A stretch of 63,212 nucleotides of DNA, filler included, from Kipferlia bialata (Eukaryota), in the NCBI GenBank assembly GCA_003568945.1. It is 6 parts of 6 records of this genome, joined end to end, with 100 filler letters (N's around TTAATTAATTAA, not from the genome) between each part and the next. Parts side by side here need not be neighbours in the genome. Positions count along the whole stretch, not along the records: positions 13,053 to 25,985 come from BDIP01001009.1; 5 more parts are not named here. One strand, given 5' to 3'. Made by a program: the position numbers and the translations under genes. Shown here one piece after another: positions 7,563 through 56,435 of the stretch. The notes under the pieces were generated by a model. The model was not told where the DNA came from. It searched no databases and was given only the letters and a program-made list of their open reading frames with translations. Position 1 is the stretch's first letter, and each line of letters begins with the position of its first letter.

Positions 7563-7979
7563 AGTGAGGTTAGTAGTTTGAGTAGTCGTATTGGAATCTC
7601 CCCCCCCCCCCCCCCCCCCCCCCGCCGACCACGAATGGCAATTCTTGGTGTTCACTCTTAGTCCTATTCTCCACCCTCTCTCCCCCATACTATCTCTCTC
7701 TGTCTGACACCTTAGAAGGGAGTCAGACTGGGTCCCTTCAAGCACAGGACCGAGGATGGTACTGGGAAGTTGTCTTGTGAGCATGAAGAGGATTGCCCTC
7801 TGCTTTGGAATGGTTAGTGTTATGAATTCATTTTCGACTCTACCACTGTCTCGTAGGCATATGCGCCTTCTTATGAAACACTTCCCGCATCAGCTGGATC
7901 GATACCTCTCCACCTATATCATATTTATACACAGAGTCGCAATACCCTCTCCTGACCTTCAGCCTCCTCCAGTCTCGTT

Positions 7980-8981: not shown

Positions 8982-9400
8982 ATAATTTGTTTTAGGTTTC
9001 AGTTGTCACAAGTTCAAAGAATGAGAAAGAGAGAATATAAGAAGTCGTGTTAAGTTAGCACTGCTAACCCAGTACTCTCTATTGTGTGATCTGGTCCCAA
9101 GACGAGTTCAATTCCATTTGGTTTCCACAGCTGGACACTAGATACCCAAGACATCCCAACTCTGTGGCTTAACTCCTGATCTTTGAGTCACTGCTGTACT
9201 TGTCATTCAATCCCTTAATCTCTGTCCATTCGACAGAGAACACTCTCTCTCGACCTCCATATAGCCACTTAGGGCTCAACAGTTCTGAGAGTAGCTCAGA
9301 CAATTCAAGAAGCCATCTCTTTTGGAAGTGGAGACTCTCTACAGGAGGATGACCCCGTAACGTATCTCATCCCTCTTGCAAAAATCAGACTCTATTAGTC

Positions 9401-12400: not shown

Positions 12401-12930
12401 CTGACACATACACATACCGCTGCTCTTACCCCCAGGCAGTCACTGATCAGATTCCTGACTCATACACCCATGCCTACCTACCTCGGCTTGCATGCGACAG
12501 TGAGAGAGGAGGCCTAGAGGGGTGGTCCCTAGCCCCAGATGGTGTGACGATCACAGACCCCTTCAACAGTGATGTGGCATGTGTGGGTCTGATGTCTATG
12601 GGTCGCAATATGTTCAGAGGGGAGGGAGTGGAGGTGGGGGATGATGTGGTTCCAGTGGCATTTAGGAGAAGAGAAGTGGAAGGAGTAGTAGGGAGGACCA
12701 CATGTGGGTTGCTTGTGATGCACACCGACAACCAAGTGCTTAACACCCAACAAGCAAAGGTAGAACGCAAGGCGACCTTGGTCTATTATCGCCACACTCA
12801 ATTGGTAAGTGAGGCATATCCCAACGTACCATCCCTGGTCATGTTCTTTACGAGGAATGGAAGGGACAGTATCGTCACGGATGAGTTTGGAGGTAATCGC
12901 CCTAAGGCGATTTGCCCTAAGACGGTGTGA
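9401..12930 (+). CDS. Hypothetical multi-exon protein with long exons, no recognised family
   Basis: Long same-strand ORFs (9804-10715, about 10871-11665, 11853-12087, 12180-12222, 12436-12930), several joinable in frame by GT-AG introns (e.g. GIR|NMLRHMKYPESDIK|AVTDQIP). The 5' structure is uncertain. Confidence 0.5.
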
Positions 12931-12952
12931 AACGCTTCTGACGTTTGTTCCC

Positions 12953-13052: not shown

Positions 13053-13141
13053 GTAGCTAGTGCCTCCTGTCCCCCCCTTCCCCCCCCCCCCCCCTTCAAA
13101 GTCACACCCTTATGCATCTCTCTTTCATGTCTAATACACAG

Positions 13142-14014
13142 GCACCAACTTTGGTATCTGGGTCGACCTGGCCACAAGGGCAGTCACGTTCCAGAGGTAT
13201 GGGTACATAAAGTGTATATACTCTCTCTCTCTCTCGCTCTCTTCCACTCTCCACATATACATATACTCCCTCACTCTAGAACACTTGTGCTCACCCTTTC
13301 TCCACCTCTCTCCCTCTTTCTCTATGTATATCTGACTCTCAGGCGCACTGGTGCCCTTGGCCCCCAGGAGGCATTCTACTCATACAAGAAGGTACGGGCT
13401 CTCTCTCTATATATATCTATATATCTATATATAGAGTATAAATTCATGCATTCTTTCCCCCAGATGATCCGCTCCCTGACTGGCATTGCCCACCTCTCTC
13501 TCTCCCTCTCTCTCTCCCTATGTATATTTATATCTTATATCCAGATGATCCCCTCTCTGACTGGCATTGCCCAGACCATGGTGACTGTGATGGAGGAGAC
13601 AGGCACTCTGGCAGGTACTAAAACTATTAAAACAGTATATACTGTATACACAAACATATATTGACTTACCATTAGGCATCCTTGACCCCAACCAGGGCCA
13701 GGAGGGTCTCTCTCTCTCTCTCTCCCTCCCCCCCTCTCTCTCTCTATGTATATATATATACTATAAGTGAGAATGTATATATAGGCTATTGTGCTTACAC
13801 TAGGCATTCTGGATGCTAACCAGGGTCTTGACGGTGCCTCTGTCCTCATATTCGGGGAGTTCTACGGAGGTAGATACAGAGACCAGACTGCTGGCATGAT
13901 CATGGTGCAGGTGAGCGTCTCTATATATCACTATCTCTATATCGGATAATCATTAGCTCTTCTCCCCACGTATATATCTCATAGAATGTGTTACTATCTT
14001 TTCTCTCTCAACAT

Positions 14015-14058
<44 letters not shown>

Positions 14059-17000
14059 CCTCTCACCTCCCAGCCCCAGATCCACTACAGCCCCACCTGC
14101 CACTTCTTCCCATTCGACATTGCAGTCTGCCCAGAGGTGCTATTCTAATGAGATATGGTACTAGTATATACATTTATGTATTGCTACAGTATCACATGCA
14201 TATATATATATCCACCTGCCGTTTCTTCCCATGCGACATTGCAGTCTGCCCAGAGGTATGCATATTCCGAGACGCATCCATACAAGTGCAGATGTAATTG
14301 TATATACTTTGTATTTTCGTGTATATGTGTGGAACCTTCTTCCCATTTGACATCGCAGTCTGCCCAGAGGTACTAACCTAATGAGATGTACATACTATAC
14401 CTGTGTGGCTAGATTCGCACTCTCATTCTACATCTTACCCCCAGGGCGATGCCTCTGTCGAGAGAGAGAACCAGCGTGAGCTGGCCGAGGACGAGGTGTG
14501 TGTCTCTCTCTCTCTCTACCCCCTTCTCTCCTCCTCTTCTACTAAGAAGGTACTCTCTCCCCCGTCTCTCCTCTCCCTTCACATATAGTAATATACATAT
14601 ACACTAATACCCAGGGTGATCCCCTCCCCCCCCACCCCTCCGACATGGTGTACCTGTCTGCACATGAGGTGGACTCCATCTGCGAGAAGGCAGCAGGGTA
14701 CGTGTGTATATAAGGATGTATATTTATATATAAATGTATCGTATCGTATATACATATATATAGTATATACATATATTTCTTCTAACCTGTAGTGTATATG
14801 TATATCTATATTGATGCACCATCTCACCCCCCAGCCGCTGTGACCTCCTGACCTGGGCCACACCTGTGATGGTCGGTACACTCGAGGTATATATCTCAGT
14901 ACATATGTCAATACATATTGGTACTTAGTATATGCTCAAATTATAGTTCACCCTGCTCACCCCCAGGACTATATGTATATATATGTGTGTGTGTATGTAT
15001 ACCCCATCCTCACCCCCAGGAGTGCAAGGCCATACCAGTCGAGGGAGTGGCCACCACCATCCCAGGTACTTAAGTTCATCTCTCTCTCTCTCCCTCTTTC
15101 AAATTGTCAGGTACTTGTGTTCATTTCTCTATCTCTCTCTCTCTACATTGAGCCATGTCCCCACAAGTTCTCTTCACATATATCTCTGTATACTCCTAGA
15201 CCATTGACCCTAGGCCGCCTTGGCCTTGAGCCCATCCCCGACAACTTCTCTCTCTCTCTCTCTATACACTATTGTATATCCATATGGTTTCTCCCTAACT
15301 TCAGGCCGCCTTGGCCTTGAGCCCATCCCTGACAACTTCTCTCTCTCTCTCTCTACACCACTATATATCCATATAGTATTTGTATCTCTATCTCACACCA
15401 GGCCGCCTTGGCCTTGAGCCCATCCCTGACAACTTCTGGGAGGGGGTCGTCATCAGGTATGTCTCTCCTCTTGCCATATATACGTTATGGCCATTGTATT
15501 TCGTGACGGCTTCACTATTTGAGTATATACACTTATACATGAACATCGATATGAATCTCCATACTCTTTAACCCCAGGCCACTCCACCAGCGTGGCAGAC
15601 ACACACTTATATTCACAAGCATAAGTGTATTCACACATTAGTATACATATGTCTCTCTCTATATATGTATGTGTGTACTAACCCCAGGCCCCTCCACCAG
15701 CGTGGCAGGCACACCATCATGAAGCGCAAGGTCAACGTCATGGGGTCTGCAGGAATAGCAGCAGCTGAGAGGGCAGCCAAGGTATATAGTGCAATCAGTA
15801 ATATATGTATATATTAATATCTCTGTATATGAGTATGTATTTGTGTATATATACATTTGTTAGTGTGATACTATTTATGATCAGCGAAGAGGGCAGCTAT
15901 GGTGGGAAGAGCGTCGTATGTAAGCCCGTGGATCTACCAATGGCCCATTCTCTCCCTCTCTCATATCATGTACTCATAGGTGTTTCTTTTCTCACCCCAG
16001 TCCAAGATCCGTGGCTCTGCCAATGCCAATGACACAACAGATGTGCTGGCACCTTACAGGGCAGGTTGGCATATTAATAGTGCATGATATATACTCTACC
16101 CTAGTATCTGGTCATTCCTCCACCTATTTGTATCTATGATTGTGTATACCTCTCATTCTTAGCCATCGACGCTGTCCTGACTGTGGACAGGGCCACTGAC
16201 ATACACACACCTCTACCACTATGGATGTACTATATTGACTACTATATATATATATATATATATATTCTTCTCACCCCCAGCCATCGACGCTGTCATGACT
16301 GTGGACAGGGCCACTGACATATATCTCCCTAATACTATACATATATACTCAATATATACTCTGTATATACTCTGTATATATATATATTCTTCTCACTCAT
16401 AGCCATTGACACCATCATGACTGTGGACAGGGCCACTGAGATCATCTCCCACCACGGGGTGGCCATGAAGGTATGAGATGGGTATACATATAGTTACTAT
16501 ATGATATAGTATATATGGATATTTCTTACCCCTTTGTGTCATTCGACATCTCGCACCATGGGGTGGCCATGAAGGTATGCATATATATATATATATACAA
16601 TATAAATTATTGATGTACCATATATGTATGATATACCATAGTGTACATATGCATCAGTACATTGATGTATACATATACATATCATCTCCCATCACGGGGT
16701 GGCCATGAAGGTACGAGAAGGGTATACATAATATACAAATTTAGTATATATGGATGCCACTTACCCAATTGGGTCAAAGGCGATGTCATCAAGCAGTTCT
16801 TAACTATTTCCCCCTAGATATGCACACTATACATACACAGTAGCGTGTCACTGTAACCTAACCCTCCAGGTCATTGGCCGTGTCATCAAGGAGTTCTCCG
16901 ATGAGGTGATGGGACTGGTCATGGAGGGCATGGACGAGGCATTCTTCAGGTATTATATATATATATACTGCATATGTATATATATGTATATACACTATTA

Positions 17001-17735
17001 CCTCCACTATATATACCCTTGGATTATCCGATGAGGTGATGGCCCTTGTCATGGAGGGCATGGACGAGGAGTTCTTCAGGTACTTATGTATATAATATAC
17101 ATGTATATATATGTATTAGTATATATATAATGTGCAATATACTACATATACTACATTGTAGCTGACTAGTCATGGAGGGCATGGACGAGGCATTCTTCAG
17201 GTACTGATGTATGTATATGGATCGGAATTTTCTCTGTATACTGTATAATTCTTCTATAGTCTGATAAGATCGACGTAAGGATGGAGGGCATGGACGAGGA
17301 GTTCTTCAGGTACAGAGTCTGTCACAGACATTCTTATGGATATTTGTATAATATGAACATGAAGGAACCTTCATGTTTGTACTGTGTACTAGTGTACATG
17401 ATATACTTTAGTCCACTCACCCCAGGCTGACTGACAAGACCCAGGCCAAGCTGAAGAAGGTCATCCGCAAGGTATGGGAACATCATTGTTATAATAGATA
17501 CATATAGTATGCTCTTTCACGATATGGTACACTACAATCATATATACAGTTAGTGGTACTTTACTTGTAATGATTACTGGTGCATTTGCTGAAGAAGCTC
17601 ATCTGCAAGACATATGCTGGTCTCTCTCTCTCTATTCATATATACATCTCTATGTGTACATGTCACACCCTCCTAACCCTTCAGGAGGCGGGTGTCTTCG
17701 TTAGGCAGGTCTTCCTGCAGCAGGCCCAGGGTTAG
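13142..17735 (+). CDS. Rnl2-family (T4 RNA ligase 2 / kinetoplastid REL-like) ATP-dependent RNA ligase, 5' partial, multi-exon
   Basis: Exons give GTNFGI (motif I tail; the catalytic Lys exon is missing), FQRRTGALGPQEAFYSY (Ia), IFGEFYGG (III), HYSPTCHFFPFDI (IIIa), WEGVVIRP (IV) and TIMKRK (V). C-terminal TVDRATEIISHHG...IGRVI resembles the Rnl2 C-domain. Stop TAG at 17733-17735. Confidence 0.85.
15202..15440 (+). repeat. Acceptor plus exon-start echo cluster (2 intronic copies) in the RNA ligase gene
   Basis: ag|gccgccttggccttgagcccatccc(c/t)gacaacttct occurs three times. Confidence 0.9.
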
Positions 17736-18163
17736 CACCGACCGGCTGGCAATCATAGACCCCACATCCGTATTCTACGCGATATTAATATTGCTTTACG
17801 CGATTGTGGTAACACTGAGGGGCACATGGCTGAAACCTCCAATATATGTAATAGATTCGCTCAGTGAAGCATTTGTAAGTTGCACTGGCAAGTGAGGATA
17901 CTCTCATATACTATTGTCAATTTTTAGCTAATGATATTAGTGATGGTACCTTATCATACTCAAATACATGCCTATACAGTACAACCCAAGAAGAGGACGA
18001 ACAAATATATTGGCACGAGGTTCCAAACACCTCACTAATGAATGAACAATGGACACAAAACGATAATCTCTCCACGACTAACACTCCCACTGACACTTAG
18101 TGCTAAGCGCATATGACTCTAACCGACAGTTTGTCTCTCCAGTGGAGACTCCTAGTTACTGCC

Positions 18164-21063
18164 TTAGTGCTTTCTCCTCTTGCCGCTCTTGACATTGGAG
18201 GAACCAGAGTGCTTGCCTAGGGGTCAATGACACACATTCGAATTTGAATACGAAGTACATATACAGAGAGACAGAGAATAGTTATATACAGTGTATTCAG
18301 TGCTTGTCTCTGTCACCTCATCCTTCCTGTCACCGGCCGTATGTATACACACGTATATGTACATATACTATTTCTAAAACATAGTATATACACATATATA
18401 CACATCAACACACCTAGCAGCTCGTCCTCGTCCTTCTTGTCCTCGGCAGCCTCAACCACAAGGTGACGGCCTAGGAGTGAGAGAGAAGTATATACATAGA
18501 TAGAGAGAGAGAGAGACAGAAAGACCACAAGTTGATGGCCTAGGAGTAAGAGAGAGAGGGATGGTGAGAAGGAAGACGACGCATACTTAGCTACATATGT
18601 AGATCTGCAATGGTTATATACATACCATAGAAGTGGGTTCCGTTCAGCATCTTGGCGGCCTCGGCGGCATCCTCAACACTAGAGGTTAGACATAGGTATA
18701 TGTATATAAATATACTGATACATAGATAAAGAGAGAGAGAGAGAAAGCATCTTGGCAGCCTCGGCAGCATCCTCAACACTGGGGGTGATGTCCACATAGT
18801 GATATACATACACATACATATAGGCATATACCGATGTGCACTGACCTAGTGTACTCTGCGAATCCGAATCCCCTCAGCTCTCCGTTCTGCCTCTTTGGGG
18901 CACGCATGGTCTTCAACTCGCCAAAGGAAGAGAGTAACTGACGCAGTTCCTATTGTTAGAGTATATTGATAGAGAGAGAGAGAGAGAGAGACACGCATGG
19001 TCTTCAACTCGCCAAAGGAGGACAGGAGCTGACGCAGTTCCTATCGTTAGAGTATATTGATAGAGAGAGAGAGAGAGAGACATGCATGGTCTTCAACTCG
19101 CCAAAGGAAGAGAGGAGCTGACGCAGTTCCTAATGGTAAGTATTATAGTATTTACGTATATATATGGGAGCGAAAGAGAGAGAGAGAGAGAGAGTATGGT
19201 CTTCAACTCGCCAAAGGAGGACAGGAGCTGACGCAGTTCCTATTGATTAGGTATATAGATATAGATAGGGAGAGAGAGGGAGAGAGAGAGAGAGAGACAT
19301 GCGTGGTCTTCAACTCGCCAAAGGAGGACAGGAGCTGGCGGAGCTCCTATTGATTAGGTTTTCATATATAAATATGTGTGTGTGTGGGACAGAGAGAGGG
19401 AGAGAGATATTGTGCCAAAGGAGGACAGGAGCTGACGCATTTGCCTAACGGATACATATATTCCATTAGATATATATCACTCTGTACCTAAGCATTGGCC
19501 TGGAATGCAATGTTCCTGATAACCAGCTACATACATATTCAGATGTATATATAATAATATATACATATATGTATAATTGATATATACAATAGAAGTATGT
19601 CACTCAATACCTTAGCATTGGCCTGGAATGCAATGTTTCTGATGACTAGCTTGAGGGCACCCTTGGCCTTGGCCGGGGTGGAGGCATCTCTATACATGAG
19701 TATGTATTGTATAGTATCTATCTATCTATACACTCTAGATATGTCAGCAGCAAACAGACAAGTACTTAGTACCTGTTAGTCAGCCTCATCTCCAGGGGGT
19801 TGTCCTTGGGGGCACGCTCCAGCCTCTTGGCGGCACGGGCCTGGGGTGAGGGTATGGACGTATATGCATGATTGTTTGGATATATGCACAACAACAGAGA
19901 GATTCACACAAATGATTACTTTTGATTATGAATATTATACCTTGGCCCTGGCCTCGTCTGTGATGGCAGCCCACTCCAGATACAGGGGGACCTGGGGTAA
20001 GAGGTATATGTATATGGATACAAGGCAATACATGTACACAAATACATATAACGTGAATCGAGTGGGAGAGAGAAGCGCCACAAAGTCGTCCCCAGACAAA
20101 AGTGCGTAAATATAGGTAATACACCCCATATACCTTGCTCTTTCCGAGGGGTGTGAATGCCAGTCTCCTGAAGGCAACCTGGGGGTCAGACGAGTTGTAA
20201 GGGTATGAAAGTAAGAACATGACCCATGAATATGTGTATTAGCGTCTTTCTATGGCTATTGAAGGCAACTATGCAATGTATATGGACACCACTTAGTATA
20301 TGGATATGACATATTGTATATGATAGCAGTACCTTAGCGGACTGAGCATCTGCCATCTCGACAATGACTGTATACTATATCTACATATATACACATACAT
20401 TATCTATATACGTATACAAATAACTATGCACACACATCTATACCTTAGCGGACTGAGCATCTGCCATCTCGACAATGGTCAGAAGGGCACCTGGGGGTAG
20501 ACATATAGAATATAATACATATAGAGATAGAGGTAGAGAGAGGGAGGGAGAGGGAGAGATAGGTTAGAAGGGCACCGGGGGAGGGGGGGGGGGGGGGAGA
20601 GATAAACCTATACAATGGATATAATGCAATATGTATCTCTATACCCACCTGGGCTTGGGTACACTGCACTGACTGCGGCGATTACATATATATTAATACA
20701 TAGTATACATGTAGTGTATATATAGTATATATATAAATAGCAGTATGTACCTGGGCTTGGGTACACTGCACTGACTGCTGCATGCTTGGAGAACATGGCC
20801 TCTGGGGGGTGAGAGATAGATAGAGATAGAGAGATAGAGAGAGTTACACGGAGAGAGAGATGCTTTGGAGGACAAGGCCTCTGGAGGGTGAGAGATAGTT
20901 ATAGGCATATGTATATATATATATATATATATATACAGCGTATGTACCTATGTCGTCTGGTGACACATCCTCTGGGATGTTCTTGCACAGCACAGTGGTC
21001 TTGGACCTATGGTTAACATACACATGTATATATAGAGAGGGAGTATATATACTGAGAATATAT

Positions 21064-21097
<34 letters not shown>

Positions 21098-21711
21098 TCT
21101 ACCTGACACTCTCTGCGTCCGGATCAGGCTCGATACCCCTGCTCTCGAGGAAGATGCCTGGGGGTTAGTGTATGTGTATCATACATATATGCGATATATA
21201 TATATACAAATAGTATACATTTATAGTGTTTATGTGTTTATAGTATATATATATAGTGTGAGAAATTGTATCTCTACTCCATGCTATCACAAATAAATAC
21301 ACAATGTACCTAGCTCCCTTGTGAGTATTGCCTCTCCCGCTTCCATTCTGACAGCTGCATACAAAATGAATAGTATATAGTATATACATAGCATATAGTA
21401 TAGATAATTAATAGTATAATACCTAACTCTCTGGCTAGCCTGGCCTCTCCCGTTGCCATCCTGACAGCTGCATTCTCTGAGAGAAGGTCCTCCTTGGACA
21501 CACCCAGTCTGGAGGCAAGTGTAGAGGTCATAGCGCCCTAGGATTAAGGGTGTAGAGAGAGAGAGAGAGAGAGAGAGACCCAGCCTGGAGGCAAGGGTGG
21601 AGGTCATGGCACCCTGATATTAAGGGTGTAGAGAGAGAGAGAGAGAGAGATACCCAGCCCAGAGGCAAGGGTAGAGGCCATGGCACCCTATAGTGAGTAT
21701 ATATAAATATG

Positions 21712-21753
<42 letters not shown>

Positions 21754-23730
21754 ATGTGTGTGTGTGTGTGTGTCCTCACCTTGTTAGTGTGGAGTGTGTT
21801 CCATGTGGACTGGTCGGCAGAGCTGTTGAGTCTGGGGTCAGGGATATCTAGTAGTATAAATATACATATATAGATGACACACATATATACAAGTCAGTAC
21901 ATATATATACCAGCTATGGACTGGTCTGCAGAGCTGTTCAGTCTGGACATGAAACGCAATATTACACATATATACATACAAGCACAGTTTCTGTTATGTA
22001 TGTGATCTCTCTCTCTCTATATATATGTACCTGTCTATCCACATACACATACCTCTGCTTCTTCTGCCTCTGCTTGTATGTCAGCTTAGAGTCATCACTC
22101 TCCCTGGGGGCAAGGGCAGCTGTGAGCCTAGCGTTAGATATTTACATGAGCAAATATATATACATACAAATAAATATATAGAACGAGCGAGAGAGAGGGG
22201 GGGGAGAGGGAGAGAACACCCTCCCTGGGGGCCATGGCGGCTGTGAGCCTAAGGTGAGATATATACATACAGGTAGAGACAAAGAGAAAAAGAAGAGAAT
22301 GTCAATCAAGTACAGTAGTACCTGATGATCTTTCCTCCGATGATGTGGCTCTCTGAGAGTGCCTTGACAGCATGCTCAGGCAGCATGAACTGCACAAAGG
22401 CAGAGCCTGGCATTAAGGGTGCAGAGGGAGAGAGAGAGAGAGAGAAAGTATGCTCAGGCAGCATGAACTGCACAAAGGCAGAGCCTGACAATAAGGGTGC
22501 AGAGGGGGGGAGAGAGAGAGAGAGAGAGAGAGAGAGCCTTGACAGCATGAACTGCACAAAGGCAGAGCCTGACAATAAGGGTGTAGAGAGGGAGAGACAG
22601 AGAGAGAGAGTAAACAGTACCTGTGCTGAACTCTGACACTGGGTCGATGATGATGTGGGTACATCACACACATATACACATACACATACACCTCTACATA
22701 GTATGTGTATCTATCTATATAACTATCCATATATATATATCTATCTATATACACACAGTACCTGTGCTGAACTCTGACACTGGGTCTATGATGTGGGCCT
22801 ATTTATAATACATGAATGTATATATGTACAAACTAAATTAACACATTTATCATATATATATATATATATAGGTGTATTACCTGTGCTGAACTCTGACACT
22901 GGGTCTATGATGATGTGGGTGTCACTCACAGGACCATACTTCTCAAAGTGCCTGGGTGTTACATGTGTGTTCAGACACATACTATTACATACACACTGTA
23001 TATACATATATGTGGGTATATACCTCCTCAACACCCCACTGTCTGTGCTCACTGGCAAATGGTACAGCTTCACATTCCTCTATACTATATAATATATACA
23101 CTATACATATGTATATATATACCTCCTCAACACCCCACTGTCTGTGCTGACTGGCAGGTGGTACAGCTTCACATTCCTCTATACTATATTATATATACAC
23201 TATACATATGTATATGTATACCTTCTTAGCACCCCACTGTCTGTGCTGACTGGCAGGTGGTACAGCTTCACATACCTCTATACTATATAATAAATACACT
23301 ATACATATGTACATGTATACCTCCTCAGTACCCCACTGTCTGTGCTGACTGGCAGGTGGTACAGCTTCAGTCTGCCTGTCTCTCCGGCATCGGCAAAGCC
23401 CTCGCCTACATGTAAGGAACATATTTATTACTATAAATATATACATGAATATACTACAATATATACTCAGTCTGCCAGTCTCTCCGGCAAAGCCCTCTCC
23501 TAGGGTAAGAGAGAGTAATATAGAGATATATGCTCCCCGGCATCGGCAACGCCCTCGCATGATTACCAGACAACTACATAGTCACTACACTGTATCACCC
23601 ACAATATTTACACCACTATACTACTATGAACATAGCTGTACCTGACACTGTCACTCCATTGCTCTCCCCCTCCTGGGGTGCCTGTCTGACAGGGGCAGTG
23701 GCTACTTGGACCTAGGGGTAAGTGTATATG

Positions 23731-23798
<68 letters not shown>

Positions 23799-24917
23799 AT
23801 ATGTCTGTCTCACAGGGGCAGTGGCCATCTGGACCTAGGGGTAAGTATCACTTAGACCAAGAATGAGGGATTGGAGATACGACTCCTCATAGAACAAACA
23901 GATCTACATCCACATAATCAAATACATGTGCAATGTATACATAAATACAAATGTATATACATGTACCTCAATCTTCTGGCTCCTCATGTATGTGCTGTTC
24001 AACTCCTTGACAGACCTAGGGGTAAGGAAGAGACAATACGAATGAAGACACGTGGGACTGATAGAGAGAGAGAGAGAGATAGGAATAGATAGGTGCCATT
24101 CAACTCCTTCACGGACCTAGGGGTGAGACGCTAAGTGTATATAATATATATACAAGTTGTATACACTAAGTATTAGTCATTGCATGGTACTCTTCCTTAG
24201 ACTTGGGATATAGATATGAGAGGAGTGGCAAAAGTATATGCACAGTGAGGCAGAGAGAGACAGAGAGATGAATATATGGAGCTCAATTCTTGCCTTGCTG
24301 CTGTCCCTCATTGAACATCATGTATATGGTATATATTGAATATATAGAATGTATGATTAGTATATACATATACAATATAGGTCAATACAGTTATATACCC
24401 TATACTTTCACTATACCTTGCTGCTGCCTCCTCGTCGTTGAATCCAAAGAGACAGACACAAAGTATACATATTCATTATGTATATGTATATATGTCAATA
24501 TAGTCCATCTATATCTATGCCATACCTTGCTGCTGCCTCCTCGTCATTGAATCCAATGAATGCATAACGACGGGACTTTCCATCACTACAGAGTGAGTGA
24601 GAGAGAGGGAGAGACATTAATCAAGAGAGATACAGATCAGAATAGAGAGATCTCAGAGAAAGTACACAGAGCGGTGGTGGTGGGGGGGGGGGGGGGGTAC
24701 TAATACTGGGTCGTCTTCTAGGAATATGCGGCAACACAGGACGTAGGTAAGCGATGGTACAGTGAGATACTCAGAGTGTGAGAGAGTAGAGAGCAATAGA
24801 TACGTACGGTCTACGCTTCACGTAACAGTCTGTGATGGATCCATATGGCGAGAACAGGGCCTTGAGCGCCTTCTCGTCTGCCTGCACGGGCAGATTCTTG
24901 ACAATGACACGGGACAT
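18164..24917 (-). CDS. MRD1: Multiple-RRM ribosome biogenesis protein MRD1/RBM19, multi-exon
   Basis: N-terminal MSRVIVKNLP...DGKSRRYAFIGF, further RRMs (GSAFVQFMLPEHA; AFRRLAF...PLYLEWA; KLVIRNIAFQA...ELRQLLSSFGELKTMR...LRGFGFAEY...THFYGRHLVVE), ending in basic GKRRKH*. Confidence 0.9.
18893..19440 (-). repeat. Acceptor plus exon-start echo cluster (4-5 intronic copies) in MRD1
   Basis: The tag|ELRQLLSSFGELKT block repeats about every 90-110 nt, separated by (GA)n/(TA)n tracts. Confidence 0.9.
23021..23370 (-). repeat. Exon-end plus donor echo cluster (3 intronic copies) in MRD1
   Basis: The KLYHLPVSTDSGVLR|gt block occurs four times at about 100-nt period. Confidence 0.9.
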
Positions 24918-25060
24918 AGCCCCAGTACGCGCAGAGAGAGAGTAGCTACTGAAGATGTGGTACTGTCTTCTCAACTACACCCTTAAGACGTTTTTGCCAA
25001 TCTTGTATCTGCCTTCAATCATGCCTCCGTGACCTATTTTCGGGATTATAGACAGTAGAA
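24918..25060. promoter_or_regulatory. Putative bidirectional promoter between MRD1 and MAK16
   Basis: 143 bp separate the two divergent ATGs. Confidence 0.6.
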
Positions 25061-25919
25061 ATGTCCTCAGGCCAGGACGGAATCATATGGGAGTGCATTA
25101 ACAAGGGCTTCTGCTCTTTTAAGACGAAGACTGCCCGCCAGACCATGTGCAGGAACCCATACAACCTTACCGGTCTTTGCGGCAAGAAGAACTGCCCTCT
25201 TGCCAACTCCCGGTACGCCACAGTCATTGACGAGGACTACAAGGTGTTCCTGTGCATCAGGACACCCGAGCGTGCTCACCTCCCCTCCACCATGTGGGAG
25301 AAGGTTGAGATGCCAGAGGACTACTCTGAGGTATGTGGAGCTATTCAACTTACCCTGTAGTATAGGGTGGTAGTATATATGCGTATATTACATTGGGGTG
25401 GGAGAGTGTAAGTGTGTGTAGCGCGGTACACGCTGCATTTGTTACCAGAGTAAGATATGGTACCGGTACCGATGTGCCTCTCAAGTATGATCTCTATCAG
25501 GAGTGTAACCAATACACTGCCGGATCTGTTTATACTAGATGTATACCTCTGTGGCGTCGCCTGCATCGCATCATACTGACTACTCATTGCATTGGGTTCT
25601 CTGATCACACATACAAGTATCCTTATGTCTCTCTTTCTTCTGTATTTCTGTACTCTTCCCTCACTACTAGGCCCTGAAGCTTGTGGATGAGAAGCTCCAG
25701 TACATGCCAGCATACATCAGACACAGGTAAGAGACATGTGTCCAGATATTTGGTAGTCAAATCGTGTACAATATGGAATATGTGCCTCTCCCGCTCTCTC
25801 CCCCTACTCTCCCTAATTAGTATGTATGTATGTACCTATCTTACCCCAGGTGTAAGCAGAGGCTGACCAAGATCACTGAGATGCACGTGAGGGTCAGGAA
25901 GCTCAGGAAGAAGATCGAG
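25061..25919 (+). CDS. MAK16: MAK16 60S biogenesis protein (3' partial, 3 exons visible)
   Basis: IIWECINKGFCSFK...CRNPYNLTGLCGKKNCPLANSRYATV...TPERAHLPSTMWEK...ALKLVDEKLQY...CKQRLTKITE. Confidence 0.95.
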
Positions 25920-26330: not shown

Positions 26331-29300
26331 CTACGCAGGAAGCAGGAGACTCACAAGCCGCACAATATCAACAGTGCCATCACCATGTGTGGGGAGGGCC
26401 AGTGCCTCAAGTTGGGAACTGGGAAGAACGGCTCCGAAACACTGTGGAATCAGAGCTCGGTCCATTCCCGAAGATGCACCGGAATCGCTAACCATCCGTC
26501 TGAAGAATGCGAGATACTGATCACGGCCGGCAACGGGAGGAACTATCCTCCTCATAAGGGTGAGAACCTCATCCCCAGAGATGGTCCGTGACTCTGACGT
26601 GCATGCTGCATCAAATGCCGCTCTGATTCTGGGCATAGCGTCCTTCTCAGACCCGGCCTCACCGAGAGCAGCCACAATGCGAGTGAACATGTCAACATCA
26701 ACACGGTCAGACGAGTCAGAGTCACACGAGGCAATGTAGGCCATGACAGACTTGATCGTGTTGTACTCGGCCAGGGTGAAGTTGAAACGTGTGTGCACGT
26801 CCTGTGCGCGGGTCAGGGCGTCAGTGAGAGTCTCAGACTCAGCAGTAAGATGCTCCTGCAGGGACATCAGAGTGGACTGCAGGTGCTGAAGCCCAAGGTG
26901 AGACGGAATAGCCATCTCCTCTCTAGCAGAGCTAGGCAGAAGAGACCTGAGCTTGCTGATCCCTTCGGACCTGGGAATCAGTCTCTCATAATCAATTATA
27001 ATTAGATACTATGGGCTCTTAGCAGCAGTCATAATCTAGAAAACTCCTTAACCGGCTCTCGAAACATCAGAACCCACCTTATCATGTTGTTGACTGTGTC
27101 GGCCGCCCTACATTCCTGACGTCAGAACAAATAATAACAATATATCAGGGTCATACCCACACATACTCACCGAGAGGTCATTATTGGTCATGACACACAG
27201 GTATGCCGCATACTTCACCAGGGTCAATCTCTCCCGCTCAGCCGTTGTCACCGCCCCATGTCTCTCTGATGACAGACTGGACAGGGCAGATATGGTGGCG
27301 CTGTACCCGGTGGACAGGGCAAGACACTCTGCCCTACGTGCCTGTCAGTCAGGTACTAACACGTAACCAGAACGAGAGAGGAACTATAAATACATGTGTA
27401 TCTCGACCCCCACCTGCCACTTGTCCCTGAAGGCACGCATGTCCACGGCAGGGACTAGCTCGATGAACTCTCCTGATGATGAGAGAAATCAAGGCTGGTC
27501 AGAGGTGTCTGGGGACAAACCATACGTACCTAGACTCGGTGGAGCTTCCTCACCATCCATCTCTGGCTCAAACAGAAGGAATCCACCTGGGGTTATAGAA
27601 GCTGGGATACCACAAACACCTATGCCATCACACAGTGTATATCAGAGCCAAGGGAGGAAGGACCATGGACCCTTCTGCCGCAGTATCAGTATCAGTACCT
27701 GTGATGAGGTCTGCCACCCTGTCGAGCCACTGGTCCTGGTCGGAGGGGGACCGGGGGGCGGGGGGGCGGGACTTGGGGACACTGGGTCCTGCGGCAGACG
27801 ACGCACCCTCACTACTGGAAAACACATCGGCAATGGTGGCATGAAGGGGCGACGTGTATCCTGACACCCCAAGAGGCAGCCTGGGGTTAATTGACGGATA
27901 ATGTTGAGTGAAGCGTTGCTTGAACACAGAACATACACAAATGGGGATAATACGCACTCAAACTCATGTAGACTATTGTAACAATACATGTTTGGTCCCA
28001 TGTTGTCGGGCATACCTGACCATAGCGTCTTCCATGGTATTCATGGCCTCTGACATTGGAACAGCGGAACCAGCAGCCTACAGTGAACGAAATATCGATG
28101 TATGTTGAAATTCAGGGCTGTTCAGAGAACTACCGTCCCAGTTTTCTACACTGCAGCAACTGCTTACCTGAATTTCCGGCATGAACTCCTTTTCCAGCCT
28201 GAGGTAAGATATTGTCATGGAAACACTTGAGTCTGATATATAGCTGCCAAACATAGTAACCACTAATATCACACCAACTACGCGAAATAGGTCGAATGCA
28301 ATGCCACAGCGTATATCACAGATTCAATACATTGACTGTACCTGGAGGCAATATCAACAGTGTGGTCACTGAGGTTCTGCTTGATGATTGCTGAGGTGAG
28401 TTGTCATTTCTTCCCTGAGAGGCTACCGTTCACAGTGAAATTATGTTGACTAGTACATACCTGAGAGAAGTCTGACACGAAGGGGATCGAAGAGGAACTC
28501 CAGTGCCCTTTCATTCTTTGCCACAACCACAGCCCCGCCCTGACCGGCCTCGGCGTCATCGCCAAGAGGCGAGACAGCTCCCACAATGGAGGGTGGGGAG
28601 GAGGAGACACCACCAGCCGACAGACCGACCTCTCTTTCAAAGTCGGAGTCAAGGCGAAGGTAGGATGGAACATCAACGCCAGCGTCAGTAGAGAAGGAGA
28701 CACGTGTAGTCCCGTCATCCATGGTCGTCTCATGCATCAGAAGTATCCCACCGATGGACTGCTCCCCAGTGGAGCTTCTAGCCCCACTGTCAGTGTCTGC
28801 CGAGTCCTGCTGACTGGCACCTGAGCCTGGTCGGGACAGGGACGGCGGCGCTGCACCCTTGGGCGCCTGCCTCAGCAGAGAGCGGATGCCCCGCCCCATG
28901 TCGGTCTCCATGTCCACCTCTGCGTCTGAGACGAGTCCCTGCAGCAGAGACATCACTGACTGGATGGCACCAGAGCTGGCAACACAGGCCTGCTGCTGTC
29001 GCCTGCATAAGTAAGAATCATAAGAACTCTATCAGTATCTCAGTATCATGAATACCGTACCGTGTTGTAGTTCTCAGGCCAAGTGCCCTGAACAGCATGT
29101 CACATGTGGGCATGACGGCTCTGATGTTCTCGGTGAGGTCATTGAAACTAGCAACCATGTCAAGAATCTGGGTGAGAACTCACAAACATAAAGGAAATAT
29201 ACAAGTAGCGCTGAATGCCCACCTCTCCCTTCAGTGACACATACTGCATGGGGTGCAGATACTGGGACATGCAGAGACTGCTGTGGGGGGAGACACTCTC

Positions 29301-38937: not shown

Positions 38938-39015
38938 CTGGAATAAACATCGGGGGAATGAATGAATGGTGGGGGGGGGGGGGGGGGGGATACAACTAAT
39001 GACAATACCTCTGTC

Positions 39016-39115
39016 NNNNNNNNNNNNNNNNNNNNNNNNNNNNNNNNNNNNNNNNNNNNTTAATTAATTAANNNNNNNNNNNNNNNNNNNNNNNNNNNNN
39101 NNNNNNNNNNNNNNN
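39016..39115. other. Artificial scaffold-joining spacer
   Basis: N44-TTAATTAATTAA-N44. Confidence 0.97.
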
Positions 39116-39393
39116 GCACTTCAACCTCCTGCCCCTGTGTATTGTCTCAACATGGTCAGTGAGACGATATGTGCTTGCGTATGACTTGTCACACTCGATA
39201 CACACAAAGGGCTTCGGAACAGGAGCCTTGTAATAAGTAGCACGCTATAAACAATTCATACATAACATATACATTGGGACATTACTATTGAGCCAACACC
39301 ATATACATATGACTTCATCGTCAATCAAGGAATGAAGTGAGATGCTTCGAGTCCTGATGCCACTGGTGTGTAACAACCCGTTCTTAACGACTC

Positions 39394-49263: not shown

Positions 49264-51923
49264 GTATCTCCCTCACCCCCCAGATGTCGCTGCCCGTGGT
49301 GTGGATATCCCAGATGTGGAGTATGTCATCTGTTACGACATGCCTGCCAGTCCCAAGGTATAGATAGTGAATATATATACACACCAAACTGTTCTGAGCC
49401 ATTTCTCTCTCCCCCCCCCCCCCAACCCTAGGTGTTTGTCCACCGTGCCGGTCGTGTAGCCAGGCAGAACAAGAGCGGTCTGTGTCTGTCCATCGTGACC
49501 CCCGAGGACCTGCCCTACCTCTGTGACACCACGCTGTTCCTGGCCAGGCCCCTGCAGCCATGCACTGAGGCTCAGGTGGGATATATCTATACATATATAT
49601 ATATGTATGTATATACACCTCATACCCTAGATACTATTCCCTACCTCTCTCACCATTAGAATGGATGCAAGGACCTGTCCTTCTGGCTGACCAAGGCGGG
49701 TAGGAAGGGGGTGTCTGAGGGTGCCATTGGGGCAGTGCCCCAGTGCTTCCTCGACATCATACAGGTACATCCTAACTTGCGTGCTCTGTGGGGTTTATCC
49801 CCCGATACTCTATCATCTCTCTCTGGTGTATACTCTACCCCCCAGCCCACCATCGACCGTGCCATGTATTCTTTCTCTATATATATATTCCAATCTCTTC
49901 CTGATCTATACTGTAAACCCTGTGCACCTACCCCAGCCCACCATCGACCGTGCCCTGGATGACCCCGAGGTGGCCAAGATGCGTAAGAGCGTCAACAACT
50001 CCATGATCAGGTATACACACCCACTCAGAGTACTCCCTATGTATACGTGTGCATGTATCTGACCCCCAGGTACCGCAAGACCCGCCCCACCGCCTCCAAG
50101 CCTGCCCTGACCAAGAGCCACTCCATCATGGACGGCGGCATCCCCATGCACCCCCTGTTCCTCAGCTACGAGAGCATCACAGGGCCATCCATCGCTAGCC
50201 TCAGGTGCATACATCTACATATACATGAACTCTCATATATGTATATATATATGATATATGTACCCTCTTCCTCACCCCCAGGAGTGTGCGTCCCACCCAG
50301 TCCATCCTAGAGGTGGGCAGCAGCACCACAGGGCAGGGCGAGATGTCAAAGCTCATCATGCAGACAAGGTATGATAAATAGATTGACCAGGGATTGTGTA
50401 TATATAACATGTATATGCATATAGGTGTGTGTATGTCAAAGCTTTTCATGCAGACAAGGTATTGTATACATTGGTATTTACATGTTGTATTTGCTATACT
50501 TGATATCATACTGGCACCCGATGTAGATGTTAGAATTCCTGCTGACCCCAGGCGTATGGAGATGGACAAGCGCAATGAGCGTCTGACTGGTTTGAGGGAG
50601 CAGGCATCCAAGGTATATATGCATTCATACATACATATATATGTATGGTACTGACCCCCAGGTTATGGCACAGAAGAGGAGCATTGAGTCCCTCCAGGCC
50701 TCCCTGGGAATAGGGAGTGGCAAGTACCAGGGGTCAGGCTTCATCAGTGACAGACCAGAGGACAAGCAGAAGGTACCAGTATATATATATGTATATATGT
50801 ATATTTATATATATAAGAATATATTAATATTATATTTATATATACTAGTATAGACCCTGACCCCCCAGGAGATTGACGAGGCCGGGTATGCCCTGGACAA
50901 CGGGTCCAAGCAGAGCAGACAGGACTCCCTGACCTCTGCCATCATGGACCTGCTGCCAGAGGACCACGAGACACTGACCGGGAATTTGAAGAAGGTATGT
51001 ATATGTGGTATATACATATATATATACTATACTATACTATACTAGGTAGAGTATATAGTATATATGTCTACGAGACACTCACAGGGAACCTCAAGAAGGT
51101 AGGGTATATACAGTGTGTATATACATATATAGACTGGGAACCTCAAGAAGGCATGGAAGGGGTACAGAGATTGTATATACATACATATATGTTTAACCCC
51201 CAGGGCCTTGTGACGAAGTGGGACGCCAAGTCCAAGCAGTATGTCAAGTTCGACAGTGCCCAGCGGACAGCCGAGAAGGCAGCCAAGAAGAAGCAGGCGC
51301 CACTCCTCACGCAGACAGACTCAGGTACGTATATAGAGTATATTGTATATACCTCTATGTCAGTATATGTATATATATATACACACACATTCATAAGGCC
51401 CCACTCCTCACACAGACAGACTCGGGTATGTATATATAGTATATTATATATATATAAATATATATATATATAATATACCTCTATGTCTGTATATGTGTAT
51501 ATATACACACATTCATAAGGCCACACTCCTCACACAGACAGACTCAGGAATATATATATATATATTTATATGTATTAATAGTGTATCAATATACTTAACC
51601 CCAGGTGGCTGGGCCGTGACCAGGGCCAGGGTCAAGGGCAACCTGTACGACCAGTGGAAGAAGAGGACAAACAGGGAGATCCAGCGGACAGGGGTCAGTG
51701 AGGAGCCTGACACCGGCCTCACCGCCCAGGAGCACAAGCTGCAGGGTCTGGGAAGGCATGCAAAGAGGAGGTTCCACATTGAGGTGGGTGAAGACAGCTG
51801 TCTATACTCTCTATCTCTCTTACTGTGTATCATTATGTCTCACTCTCTAGGAGCAGAAGCACGGCAGGCAGGCTAAGGGCCCCCTCAACAGTGGCACAGC
51901 CACAAAGACTAAGGCTGATACAG
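46696..51923 (+). CDS. DBP10: DEAD-box RNA helicase DBP10/DDX54 (interrupted by gap 47100-47211; 3' partial)
   Basis: APTRELA, GGDSLSNQFSAL, ATPGR, DEADRMFE, LLFSAS, IFTATRYHVDY, YGSLDQQAR, TDVAARGVDIP, FVHRAGRVAR, plus DBP10 C-terminal WDAKSKQYV and LYDQWKK. Confidence 0.9.
47100..47211. other. Scaffold gap flanked by C homopolymers
   Basis: N run between C tracts. The helicase Q-motif and motif I exons are missing, so the true gap is probably larger. Confidence 0.9.
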
Positions 51924-52195: not shown

Positions 52196-54520
52196 GTCCA
52201 TGACCAACTGCCTCTACAACCTTGAGGTCGAGGACCCCTACCACAACGTGCTCAGGGAGCTCGGATTCGAGATGGAGACTATCCAGGTATATATAGCATA
52301 CAATATATATACTGTTCACCATATCTCTCCCTCTATCTCTATCTCTCTCTCTCTCTCTATATATATAGTATATGTGTCTCTCTGACCCCAGGGAGAGGAG
52401 TCTGACGCCGGTCTCGGCAACGGAGGTCTCGGACGCCTTGCCGCCTGTTTCATGGACTCTCTGGCCTGCCTTGACATGCCCGCCTACGGATACGGACTCA
52501 GGTGCATATATACATATGAATATGATAATACGAGCGGGATTTGAACCCACTGACCCCCAGGTACCAGTACGGTATGTTCCGCCAGACCATCGAGGACGGA
52601 TACCAGAAGGAGAACCCCGACTACTGGCTGACTCACGGAACCCCCTTCCCCCAGGTACAGCATGTCTCTCTCTCCCTCCCTACACCCTCAATACACCGTC
52701 TGTACTTACACTCCAGGTCGAGCGTCTCGACATCACCTTCCCCGTCCGCTTCTACGGACACACCGTTGCCCACCCCGTTGAGGGTACGTACATTGTCTCT
52801 CTCTCTCTCCCTTCTCAATATTTATATGCATTCCTCGGGAATCGAACCCACGCCACTACCACATCCATCTGACCTCCAGGCACCAACAAGAGCAGGTGGG
52901 GCTGGGAGGGTGGCAGCACCGTGCAGGCCGTCGCCTACGACTGTCTCTGCCCCGGACACCACACCAACCACGTTGTCCCCATCAGGTACTGTACTCTCTC
53001 TCTCCCTACACCCTTCTCTTCTTCTCTCCCTCTAGCCCCTTATGTCAGGCTGTGGGCTGCCCGCCCCTCCACTGAGTTCGACCTCAGCGTCCACAACTCC
53101 GGAAACTTCCTGAGGTACATTAACGCAACCTCTCTATCTCTATCTCTTTTTAGGCTCTCTATATATTTGCTATTATCTAACTTGCAGGTCCGTCGCCGAG
53201 AAGGCCGACTCTGAGAACATCACCTTTGTGCTCTACCCCAACGACTCCACCGAGGAGGGTACGTATACATACATACATATTAGAAAGTGCATGTAGTGGG
53301 AATCGAACCCAGGTCCTCCTAACCCCCAGGCCGTCTCCTCCGTCTCAAGCAGGAGTACTTCTTCGTCTCTGCCTCTCTGCAGGATATCCTCAGGAGGGCC
53401 GAGAGGATCGAGTGCCCCTTCTCCAAGCTCGGTAAGTATATATATATATACATATACATATACATAGAGGGAATTGAACCCAGAACCATTGATGAATGAT
53501 AGCCTTACCCTCAGGTGAGAAGTACGCCGTTCAGCTCAACGACACCCACCCCGCCCTTGGAGTGCCCGAGCTCATGAGGTACCCTCTCTCTCTCTCTCTC
53601 GTAAGATAATAGTGCAGAGAGTGGGGATCGTACCCACGCCCATCTAATCCCAGGCTTCTCCTTGACGTCCACGGCTTTGAGTGGGAGGAGGCCTGGGAGG
53701 TTGTTGGATCCGTCTTCAGCTACACCAACCACACCGTGCTCCCCGGTATGTACTGTCTCTCTTTATCTTTCTCTCTCTCTCTCTTAATGATCTCTCTGAC
53801 CTTCAGAGGCCCTCGAGAAGTGGCCCCTCTCTTACTCCCTCTCTCTCTGTCTCTCTCTTTCCATATATATTTGATTCTATATATCTCCCTCCTACTTTCC
53901 CTGACCCCCAGAGGCCCTCGAGAAGTGGCCCCTCTCCATCCTGGTCCACCTTCTGCCCAGGTACCAAAGTCTCTCTCTCTCTCTCCCTCAATTGTATATG
54001 TATAGTATTCTTGGATGGTATTGTCTAACCTCAGGCACACTGAGATCATCCTCGAGATCAACAGGAGGTTCCTCGCCGTTGTCGAGGCCAAGTGGCCCGG
54101 TGACATCGAGAGGTATGCATTACTATGCACTAAGTGGGGCTCGAACCCAGGACATTGTGCTCACCATCCAGGCTCCAGCGCATGTCCCTTGTGCAGGAGG
54201 GCTCCCAGAAGATGGTCAGGATGGCCAACCTCGCCATTGTGGCCTCCCACAAGGTACTCTCTCCATCTCTCTCTGTGTGTGTGTGTGTATGTACATCTCT
54301 CTTATTCCCAGGTGAACGGTGTTGCCGCCCTCCACTCCCAGATCATCAAGGACACCATCTTCAAGGTACACACCTGCTATTTACTCAATATAGATGTAGT
54401 GTCTGTCTCTCTATATACTTACTGTATAATGCCTCTTACCCCCCAGGACTTCTACGAGCTGTGGCCCACCAAGTTCATCAACGTCACCAACGGAGTCACC
54501 CCCCGTAGGTACAGTCCTCC

Positions 54521-54563
<43 letters not shown>

Positions 54564-56435
54564 AATTCATATATCTTATGCCTTCCTGACACTCAGGTGG
54601 ATCTCCCAGTGCAACAGGCCCCTTGGCGAGTGGATCACCGAGACCCTGCAGTCCATGAAGGTCATCAAGGTAAGGACAGCTATAAGGCAGAGGCTACAAT
54701 AGTGTGACACGAGTGGGAATCGAACCCATGGACTCTGACATCCAGGAGGAGCACGAGTGGCTTCAGGACATGTCCCTCCTCAAGAACCTCCTCAAGCTCG
54801 AGTCTGACGGTACGTGTATATATATTGTATCTGGCTGGAGTTGAACCCACACCTCTCTCACCCTTAAGCCGACACCCTCGACGCCGTGCTCGACATCAAG
54901 AGGCAGGGCAAGGAGAGGCTCTGCGACTACATCGAGGAGCACTGCGGAGTGACCGTGTCCCCCGACATGCTCATCTCCACCCAGGTACCCTCTCTCTCTC
55001 TCTCTCTCTAGACCCTTATTTCTCTCTCTCTCTCTCTCTTACCCTAGGTGAAGCGCATCCACGAGTACAAGAGGCAGCTCCTCTGCCTCCTCGGACTTGT
55101 GCACCAGTACATGGCCCTCAAGGTATAATCATACATATACATGTACACTGTTCATATATCGTAAATGTATATTATTTACTATATGCAACTCTCTTACCCC
55201 CTAGGAGATGTCCCCCGAGGAGAGGAAGGAGAAGGCCGTACCCAGGTGCCACCTCTTTGCCGGAAAGGCTGCCCCCGGATACGCCAGGGCTAAGGTATGA
55301 AACACAATAATATACTAGCAGGGAATCGAACCCACATCCTCCCCCCTCTCATCCCAGGTCATCATCAAGATGATGAACTGCATCGCTGACGTGCTCAACA
55401 ACGACCCCGAGACCTCCGACTACCTCAAGCTCGTGTTTGTCCCCAACTACTGCGTGTCCAACGCCGAGATCATCTTCCCAGGTATAGTATATACACATAT
55501 TCTCTCTCTCTAAACCCTTATTCACACCCAGGCACTGACGTCTCTGAGCAGATCTCCACCGCTGGCCACGAGGTAATCTCTCTCTATATATATATATATT
55601 ATAGTGCATGACAATGTTTTGTCCTCTGTAGGAATCGAACCCTGACCCCCAGGCCTCTGGAACTGGTAACATGAAGGCCTCCATGAACGGAGCCATCATC
55701 ATCGGAACCCTCGACGGAGCCAACGTTGAGATCCGTGAGGAGATTGGAGAGGAGAACATGGTACGCCATTAATATGTATTCCCAGGGATTCGTACCCACG
55801 TCTCTTCAGTTCTGACACCAGGTCATCTTTGGTGCTGAGAAGCACGAGGTGCTCGCCGTGCGTGACACCTACAACAACGGCTCCTCCACCCAGCTCTCCG
55901 AGTCCTTTGCCGCTGTCCTCGACGCCGTTGACGGGGGCATGTTCGGACACGCCGACCTCTTTGCCGTACGTTTCTCTCTCTCTCTCTCTCTTACTAATTA
56001 GTCTCTTTCTAATGCATCTTGCTCAGATTCTGACCCTTCAGAAGATCACCGGTGAGCTCCGCTCCGGCCGTGACTTCTACCTCCTTGCCCACGACTTTGA
56101 CGGATACATCCAGGCCTGGGAGGAGATGTTCAACAGGTATAATATATATATATACATCGATCCACTTAGTATTGTTATATATTAGTATTAGATTATTGTA
56201 TTATTATTATTATATATATATATATATATATATATTGTTTTACGGATACATCCAGGCCTGGGAGGAGATGTTCAACAGGTAATACTACACATTTCCTCTT
56301 CCTTATAAGGAAATATGCGCAGAGTGGGAATCGAACCCTCACCCTCAGGTTCGACGACCAGGATGCCTGGGCCAGGTCCATGCTCCACTCCATCGCCAGG
56401 ATGGGCAAGTTCAACTCTGACCGTTCCATCCAGGT

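Follow-up and report, generated by a model that had tools for sequence, protein, structure and literature searches.

Intronic echoes of splice junctions differ from their exons mainly at silent sites in a Kipferlia bialata genome and may be stranded pieces of other alleles

Introduction

Why should DNA that lies inside an intron respect the reading frame of the exon beside it? In a multi-RRM gene of Kipferlia bialata, the donor of exon 5 is followed by three further copies of the exon end, each with its own GT, and every base by which these copies depart from the exon is silent. An earlier note on this DNA called such copies echoes, and proposed that each had once been the functional exon end, had been copied from divergent functional alleles, or is still recruited into mRNA by an unusual route. 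Here we measure the silent bias over all echoes of the surrounding window, a stretch of 63,212 nt, and weigh these readings.

Repeats that straddle an exon-intron boundary are known from the human F7 gene, where the first unit of the 37-bp VNTR of intron 7 spans the boundary, and from similar minisatellites; in the F7 report, as far as its accessible text goes, splicing uses the donor farthest upstream, and the pseudo-sites that follow it, described as sequence-identical, are silent (PMC1557585). Intragenic duplications tolerated by splicing are likewise a known kind in the accessible parts of two reports (PMC2891723, PMC3488318). An intron-rich fornicate genome has been described with 124,912 GU-AG introns, in a paper whose accessible text does not contain the word 'duplicat' (PMC5874029).

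Materials and Methods

The window consists of several contigs joined by N spacers. Genes were found with a small purpose-built predictor, and 10 models were then curated by coordinates. The echo search covered the 165 introns of these models; excluded were predicted genes at 7570-12950 and 32500-39010 and the stretch 39100-41700. Each exon end was compared with its own flanking intron by frame-blind local alignment, and matches were filtered by anchoring within 2 nt of a splice site, by score and by length. Ten of 68 matches were discarded because they scored low, were unanchored at the splice site or measured <18 nt after trimming, and 58 were retained. In window-wide counts each site-and-base was scored once.

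Read evidence came from one sample in two runs, both in the form of contigs and compared only over 13060-14705. One run is presumed to be RNA, a status not on record; the joints of its contig are GT-AG. The other, a DNA run, is perhaps the window's own source, and thus tests the assembly and not a second sample; its contigs have no cover at 14215-14379, hence over two donor echoes.

Results

All frames of the 10 curated models are open, and GT-AG bounds 165 of 165 introns. In 134 of these, a branch-point-like A precedes the intron end by 6-8 nt, a placement close to the fused branch-point arrangement that the available text of one report describes for diplomonads and parabasalids (PMC6679479). 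The 68 alignment matches were spread over 42 introns, and the 58 echoes retained fall in seven genes, half of them (29) on the donor side and 29 on the acceptor side. By gene, the introns with echoes number 14/21, 10/15, 8/22, 6/21, 2/27, 1/9, 1/4, 0/2, 0/23 and 0/21. Two long genes, 26331-31856 and 57902-62873 (-), have 44 introns and not one echo, whereas elsewhere, on other contigs, up to two-thirds of a gene's introns bear them; the echo process is therefore regional or gene-specific. Coordinates of the principal loci are collected in Table 1.

Table 1. Echo-bearing loci and their parts; positions are those of the window
Feature	Position	Strand	Remarks
Focal multi-RRM gene, 22 exons	18164..24917	-	open frame; GT-AG at all introns; RRM_1 on exons 1 and 19
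Exon 5 of focal gene (real)	23321..23405	-	ends at first of four donors
Donor-side echo 1 of exon 5	23222..23270	-	49 nt; 3 silent differences; GT retained
Donor-side echo 2 of exon 5	23123..23171	-	49 nt; 2 silent differences; GT retained
Donor-side echo 3 of exon 5	23024..23072	-	49 nt; 5 silent differences; GT retained
Span with three 50-nt TA-rich intron starts	23073..23320	-	23320-23271, 23221-23172, 23122-23073
Final piece of intron 5	22952..23023	-	72 nt; normal-sized complete intron with branch point and AG
Exon 6 of focal gene (real)	22881..22951	-	own donor-side echoes 22793-22762 and 22672-22621
Exon 10 of focal gene (21537-21423) and echoes	21310..21687	-	acceptor-side echoes 21613-21573, 21687-21647; donor-side echo 21360-21310
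Exon 19 of focal gene (real)	18846..18949	-	starts at last acceptor of array
Five acceptor-side echoes of exon 19	18992..19442	-	19040-18992, 19129-19081, 19239-19196, 19346-19298, 19442-19414
Second echo-rich gene	13142..17735	+	16 exons seen; echoes in 10/15 introns
Second echo-rich gene, part compared with contigs		+	acceptor echoes 13464-13492, 13676-13698; donor echoes 14212-14255, 14336-14369
Exon 20 of DEAD-box helicase gene and echo	50869..51098	+	exon 50869-50994; donor-side echo 51070-51098
Glycogen phosphorylase gene, two echoes	53807..56278	+	53807-53831, 56238-56278

The focal gene has echoes in 14 of 21 introns, and we take its product to be an MRD1/RBM19-like protein. Exons 5 and 6, searched singly against Pfam, gave no match, and their reading frame rests on the open chain of 497 codons in which they lie, on GT-AG at 21 of 21 introns and on the RRM_1 matches of exons 1 and 19. 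The gene is divergent with an L28e/MAK16-family gene, their starts 143 nt apart (24917-25061), and both presumably act in ribosome assembly. A metagenome scan with the first exon of this neighbour returned 11 distant loci, the best at 46-75% identity on short stretches, and no close relative.

The helicase gene was named DBP10 in the earlier note; its exon 3 gives a weak DEAD match (E 0.0017). For the second echo-rich gene, two single exons searched against Pfam had no match, and its protein carries motifs that we assume to be those of RNA ligase 2 family enzymes. The two glycogen phosphorylase echoes have an exon part identical after trimming and an intron side without recognisable likeness. 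The same gene (52536-56326, +) has a GGGAATCGAACCC-like motif just upstream of the acceptor in 12 of 27 introns, and the pattern has no match in any other intron of the window. We take the motif to be the reverse complement of a tRNA T-arm, or box B; ARAGORN found no tRNA, and the motif could be a gene-specific intron element or the product of copying between introns. Intron 9 of the kinase gene (843 nt) contains, at 3985-4446 (-), an array of about six units of 73-81 nt, in which only some 10 exon bases precede each donor, below the length required by the echo filter.

The array in intron 5 of the focal gene has a spacing of 99 nt, each unit being the last 49 nt of exon 5 plus 50 nt of intron start; the three intron starts differ from one another at 2-4 positions per 50. 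Seven distinct differences separate the echoes from the exon (GTA>GTG, CTG>CTA, AGG>AGA, CTG>TTG twice, CAC>CAT, GTC>GTG), and all are silent. By site-state, they hit zero-fold sites 0/28, two-fold sites 4/16 and four-fold sites 3/11. The probability of seven silent changes in seven is 0.0001-0.002 under neutral DNA and 0.002-0.024 (about 0.005) under a stricter null that lets the exon lineage accumulate silent changes of its own. The locus was chosen post hoc by eye, and zero-fold against four-fold sites alone give P 0.085, so it is the window-wide count that carries the claim. Exon 5 also contains an internal donor-like GTACTG (23332-23327, -), 11 nt before the exon end, whose use would break the frame; it was created by a single silent change absent from all three echoes (GTA versus GTG). 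Elsewhere in the gene, introns 6 and 9 (22407-22440, 21538-21570, -) share a near-identical terminal module of CT run and branch point, which is the best match among all intron-end pairs and is present in their echoes too.

Over the 58 echoes we counted 107 distinct differences, at codon positions 1/2/3 in the numbers 25/11/71, and 75 of them are silent by site; read in the two shifted frames, only 21/107 and 10/107 would be. The earlier note's statement that echoes diverge almost only at synonymous sites thus describes the exon 5 array (23021-23370) exactly but overstates the case for the window, where 32 of 107 differences are not silent. Its further examples at 18893-19350 and 50966/51070 proved on recheck to be as described; the helicase exon 20 echo and the exon 10 echo 21613-21573 each show five silent and no replacement differences.

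The note had also proposed a dN/dS comparison against a null of 1. The appropriate neutral expectation is about 0.5, because the exon itself keeps gaining silent changes only, and simulated neutral echoes passed through the same trimming and pipeline gave 0.51, with a minimum of 0.23 in 900 runs. We observed differences at 28 of 818 zero-fold and 42 of 218 four-fold sites, a base-stratified ratio of 0.18 (P 3.5e-5 against 0.5), with an interval of 0.10-0.30 from a bootstrap over 40 exon sides. The silent bias described in the note is present, and the reading of echoes as neutral pseudo-exon fragments, for which about 0.5 is expected, is rejected. The ratio is 0.22 (P 0.001) without the three loci that the note had named, and the donor-side and acceptor-side sets are concordant. 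It varies by gene: the focal gene has 0.11, the helicase gene 0.06 and the second echo-rich gene 0.36 (P 0.27), and outside the focal gene it is 0.27, a borderline result (P 0.051).

Several simple sources of silent excess were tried and rejected. (i) Splice-signal constraint at exon edges is not the cause: skipping 3 or 6 nt still gives 0.17 and 0.19. (ii) Mutation bias towards A/T is not either, silent differences being symmetric between A/T and G/C (35:28, P 0.45). (iii) Detection bias is answered by the simulated neutral echoes and their 0.51. (iv) Faster mutation of the exon alone does not suffice, as changes private to echoes are silent-biased too.

This last point was examined in the arrays. 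For differences confined to a single echo the ratio is 0.10, from 3 zero-fold and 8 four-fold changes (P 0.01 against 0.5); for those common to all echoes of an array it is 0.15. Of the 15 differences in a nearer echo at sites where a farther one equals the exon, 12 are silent by site (two in codons with a replacement). Drift of the present exon is hence not the sole source of the bias. The arrays are mosaics and no time series: the silent variants of the exon 19 echoes are intermixed, the second echo having two exon states that are missing from the nearest. The suggestion that divergence might scale with distance from the exon found no support (rho 0.11, P 0.41 over all echoes; nearer echo closer in 16 of 24 untied pairs).

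Replacement differences do not tend to be more conservative than random ones (mean BLOSUM -0.43 versus -0.48), which fits later decay and not allele polymorphism. Splice dinucleotides have decayed at 6/116 = 0.05, near the zero-fold divergence of 0.03, and doubling the latter leaves about 64% of the four-fold divergence beyond the time since duplication. This suggests two phases, in which some two-thirds of the four-fold divergence would have built up under coding constraint of both copies and the small rest by neutral decay. Codons with two differences are in excess, 15 against 6.4 expected (P 0.002).

An echo unit comprises 20-62 nt of exon end or start and 33-129 nt of intron, 74-153 nt in total with none shorter, and the lengths of the two parts are inversely related (rho -0.46). 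Splice dinucleotides are well retained, GT in 27/29 donor-side and AG in 26/29 acceptor-side echoes, and a branch-point motif precedes 23/29 acceptor echoes, against 88% of real AGs and 18% of decoy AGs. With matrices trained on the window's own models, echo donors score as real donors do and echo acceptors slightly lower (P 0.028). On the intron side, by contrast, 34 of the 58 echoes resemble the real intron end no better than the top 5% of unrelated introns do, and intron-side and silent divergence are uncorrelated (rho -0.04). The exon part and its splice signal have thus been kept, and the surrounding intron is different. Four introns hold echoes of both sides; in each, the donor echoes lie upstream of the acceptor echoes, and therefore no pseudo-exon is formed. 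Junctions that enter a dinucleotide repeat make up 16/29 on the acceptor side against a background of 24%; the donor side has no such excess (8/29). Some echoes have a stop, deletions or lost splice sites. Fifteen of the 58 show no difference at all and may be plain sister duplications.

Three further accounts of the echoes were considered at this level and set aside. In-frame alternative splicing would be open to only 7 of 58 echo sites that are in frame and stop-free, with offsets distributed 24:13:21 over the three phases. Recursive splicing at AG/GT does not fit most echo-bearing exons, which lack an initial GT. Borrowing of intron ends within a gene has a weak excess (14 versus 6 and 20 versus 8 top pairs) and leaves the silent bias unexplained. 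No full-length duplicate exon with both splice sites was present among the 68 matches in 165 introns.

Over 13060-14705, in the second echo-rich gene, the contig of the presumed RNA run (depth 22, no other letters) joins seven exons from first donors to last acceptors, four joints at repeats having been left out of the comparison. It passes over all four echoes there, two acceptor-side and two donor-side, and contains no echo letters. A DNA contig of 324 nt follows the window without a mismatch through exon 3, the intron and the exon-4 echo, at a depth of 459 beside neighbours of 355 and 419. Counted from its first base, the contig occupies 13399-13722 and shares exactly 30 bases with its neighbour; repeats are skipped in the alignment, and from this fit in length the exon-3 echo should lie inside it. 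No second allele appears in this region, as neither the DNA nor the RNA contigs of the one sample have other letters. Since the RNA contig skips the echoes and the DNA contig carries an echo in line, both misassembly and major use in mRNA are unlikely at 13060-14705. Contigs drop rare forms, and rare use in mRNA may occur.

Discussion

Copies identical at birth cannot yield a silent bias unless the echo stays under coding selection, and the simplest source that had already diverged and already been selected is another allele. An old exon end left behind by duplication on the same chromosome is insufficient: it predicts 0.5 where 0.18 is observed. We consider it on balance probable that the echoes are junction pieces of long-diverged working alleles, left in introns by out-of-register recombination and then decaying slowly. 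The proposed steps are as follows, sex in the host being assumed. In a very diverse population, whose alleles might differ by about 0.1-0.2 at silent sites, the microsatellite-rich introns of diverged alleles would no longer align, and when two haplotypes meet only the short exons would pair. A break in an intron would then leave an unpaired intron tail, whose end may use microhomology, frequently at a CT run, to prime on the other allele just past the junction. Such a template switch would place one allele's junction before the other's, a left end giving a donor-side echo and a right end an acceptor-side echo. Selection would retain only products that the spliceosome reads correctly, with one splice site per echo and a unit of at least about 75 nt, and splicing from first donor to last acceptor would render them harmless. 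The silent differences would date from the time when each copy was still translated in its own lineage, and replacement differences and lost GT or AG would mostly be later decay. If the host is a free-living fornicate, two points in the accessible text of one report are relevant: metamonads are reported without canonical end joining and fornicates without Rad51A, and one free-living fornicate is predicted to be haploid with evidence for sex (PMC8516963).

Several observations sit awkwardly with alleles as the source. The ratio is uneven between genes. The narrow unit length is unexplained without the added selective filter. At the exon 5 array the intron parts differ by 4-8% and degenerate sites by 10-24%, a gap that would require either chance or subsequent exchange limited to the exon part. 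Of the readings in the earlier note, a once functional exon end and a copy from divergent functional alleles both fit, as a single process, and recruitment into mRNA gains no support.

That recruitment, in which echo sequence would still reach mRNA at some level by unusual splicing or a template switch, could draw on the strength of echo donors and the near-parity of echo acceptors, and on the invisibility of rare forms in contigs; rare use is possible. But each echo has a single splice site, few are in frame and stop-free, their phases are scattered, and the RNA contig runs past four of four echoes with no other letters, apart from its four repeat joints, so we hold this very unlikely. We regard as comparably unlikely that echoes are remnants of whole-exon duplicates, once mutually exclusive exons, that later lost one end: this would yield a silent bias and separately maintained splice signals, yet no two-site duplicate survives among the matches, and a long remnant phase would have shifted the ratio towards 0.5. 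An assembly artefact that set allelic contigs in tandem has a slimmer chance still. The unit length of about 100 nt does resemble a short read, the focal locus and the donor echoes 14212-14369 lie outside DNA contig cover, and 9% of words sampled at 18100-25000 are missing from the DNA run, close to the value of about 11% estimated by hand for the case that every junction is false, although the 0.91 share of words present in the focal gene does not discriminate between true and false junctions. Against it stand the 324-nt contig, with its middle deduced from the 30-base overlap, the lack of other letters in either contig set, and arrays with up to six versions. Least probable is that same-chromosome tandem duplications decay neutrally, the bias being the exon's own silent change plus chance; such repeats are known from splice-junction minisatellites, and this may apply to some echoes and to the second echo-rich gene taken alone, but it is rejected window-wide and for echo-private changes.

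Two other ideas were weighed. If duplication were error-prone, the new copy might become the working junction, only events with silent errors surviving, and the echo would be the unchanged old junction. This accounts for an altered intron side with intact splice signals and for the excess of two-difference codons; it requires an error rate near 0.2 per base, of which we know no example, and predicts nested change in one direction, whereas the arrays are mosaic and the silent changes symmetric. We think it improbable. Less so, but still doubtful, is that echoes are silent cassettes under continuing selection, damaged ones being purged when array collapse or conversion makes them the working exon end. 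The mosaic exon 19 echoes and the much better preservation of exon parts than of flanks speak for this; stops, deletions and lost splice sites in some echoes speak against it, and by our reasoning exchange frequent enough for selection would erase divergence unless allele diversity were already high. Cassettes would thus need a huge population of high allele diversity, and so fold into the allelic origin that we prefer. A bolder reading, which we put forward tentatively and think unlikely, is a living reservoir: the introns of housekeeping genes would store splice-junction cassettes of many alleles, swapped back into the working exon, through DNA or rarely RNA, so frequently that selection would keep them translatable, and exon ends would turn over by cassette exchange.

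Un- or partly expressed copies that keep coding signatures are familiar from the silent cassettes of antigenic variation and from duplicates of mutually exclusive exons. The echoes differ from both in measuring 20-60 nt, lying in housekeeping-type genes, having one splice site and showing no use in the RNA contig; mutually exclusive exons are full copies with acceptor and donor, of which the 68 matches include none.

They come nearer to intron 7 of F7 as described in the available text (PMC1557585): donor-side echoes are head-to-tail copies of exon end and donor whose first unit spans the boundary, and, at the four echoes of one gene covered by the RNA contig, the outermost authentic site is used and echo sites are silent. 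The F7 case is one donor-side locus; here 42 of 165 introns are affected and half the echoes are acceptor-side, with the last acceptor used. Its pseudo-sites are described as identical, whereas here the intron parts are often dissimilar and most differences in the exon part are silent; near-identity of units over their whole length occurs at the exon 5 array (92-96%) and is lacking in 34 of 58 intron sides. Like the intragenic tandem duplications of a second report, echoes are short and made harmless by splicing; those duplications of exonic AG/GY create a new intron of the duplication's own size, in the text accessible to us, where 'synonymous' does not occur (PMC2891723). Here, unlike there, the repeat copies a junction already present and lengthens its intron, the units lying inside that intron and being skipped along with it. 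Junction-spanning repeats and splicing-tolerated duplications are thus known, and dense two-sided echoes with a silent bias appear to be new, with the mechanism proposed above: we found no description of them in the literature searched, which left most subscription journals outside.

For annotation, echoes mislead gene predictors, and several were miscalled as exons by our own. Whatever their origin, the arrays offer a natural test of how splice sites are chosen. Acceptor arrays with up to five echoes exist, and at two acceptor echoes the spliceosome is seen to bypass sites that have a full branch point and AG and lie at a normal distance for an intron, and to use the last; such behaviour suggests exon definition in a unicellular-type genome with small introns. 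If the allelic origin is true, a single genome without visible heterozygosity stores other alleles in its introns, each echo being a sample of a past haplotype. The echoes would then be evidence of recombination between very divergent alleles, would allow silent diversity to be estimated from one isolate, and would mark a dense, two-sided route by which introns grow.
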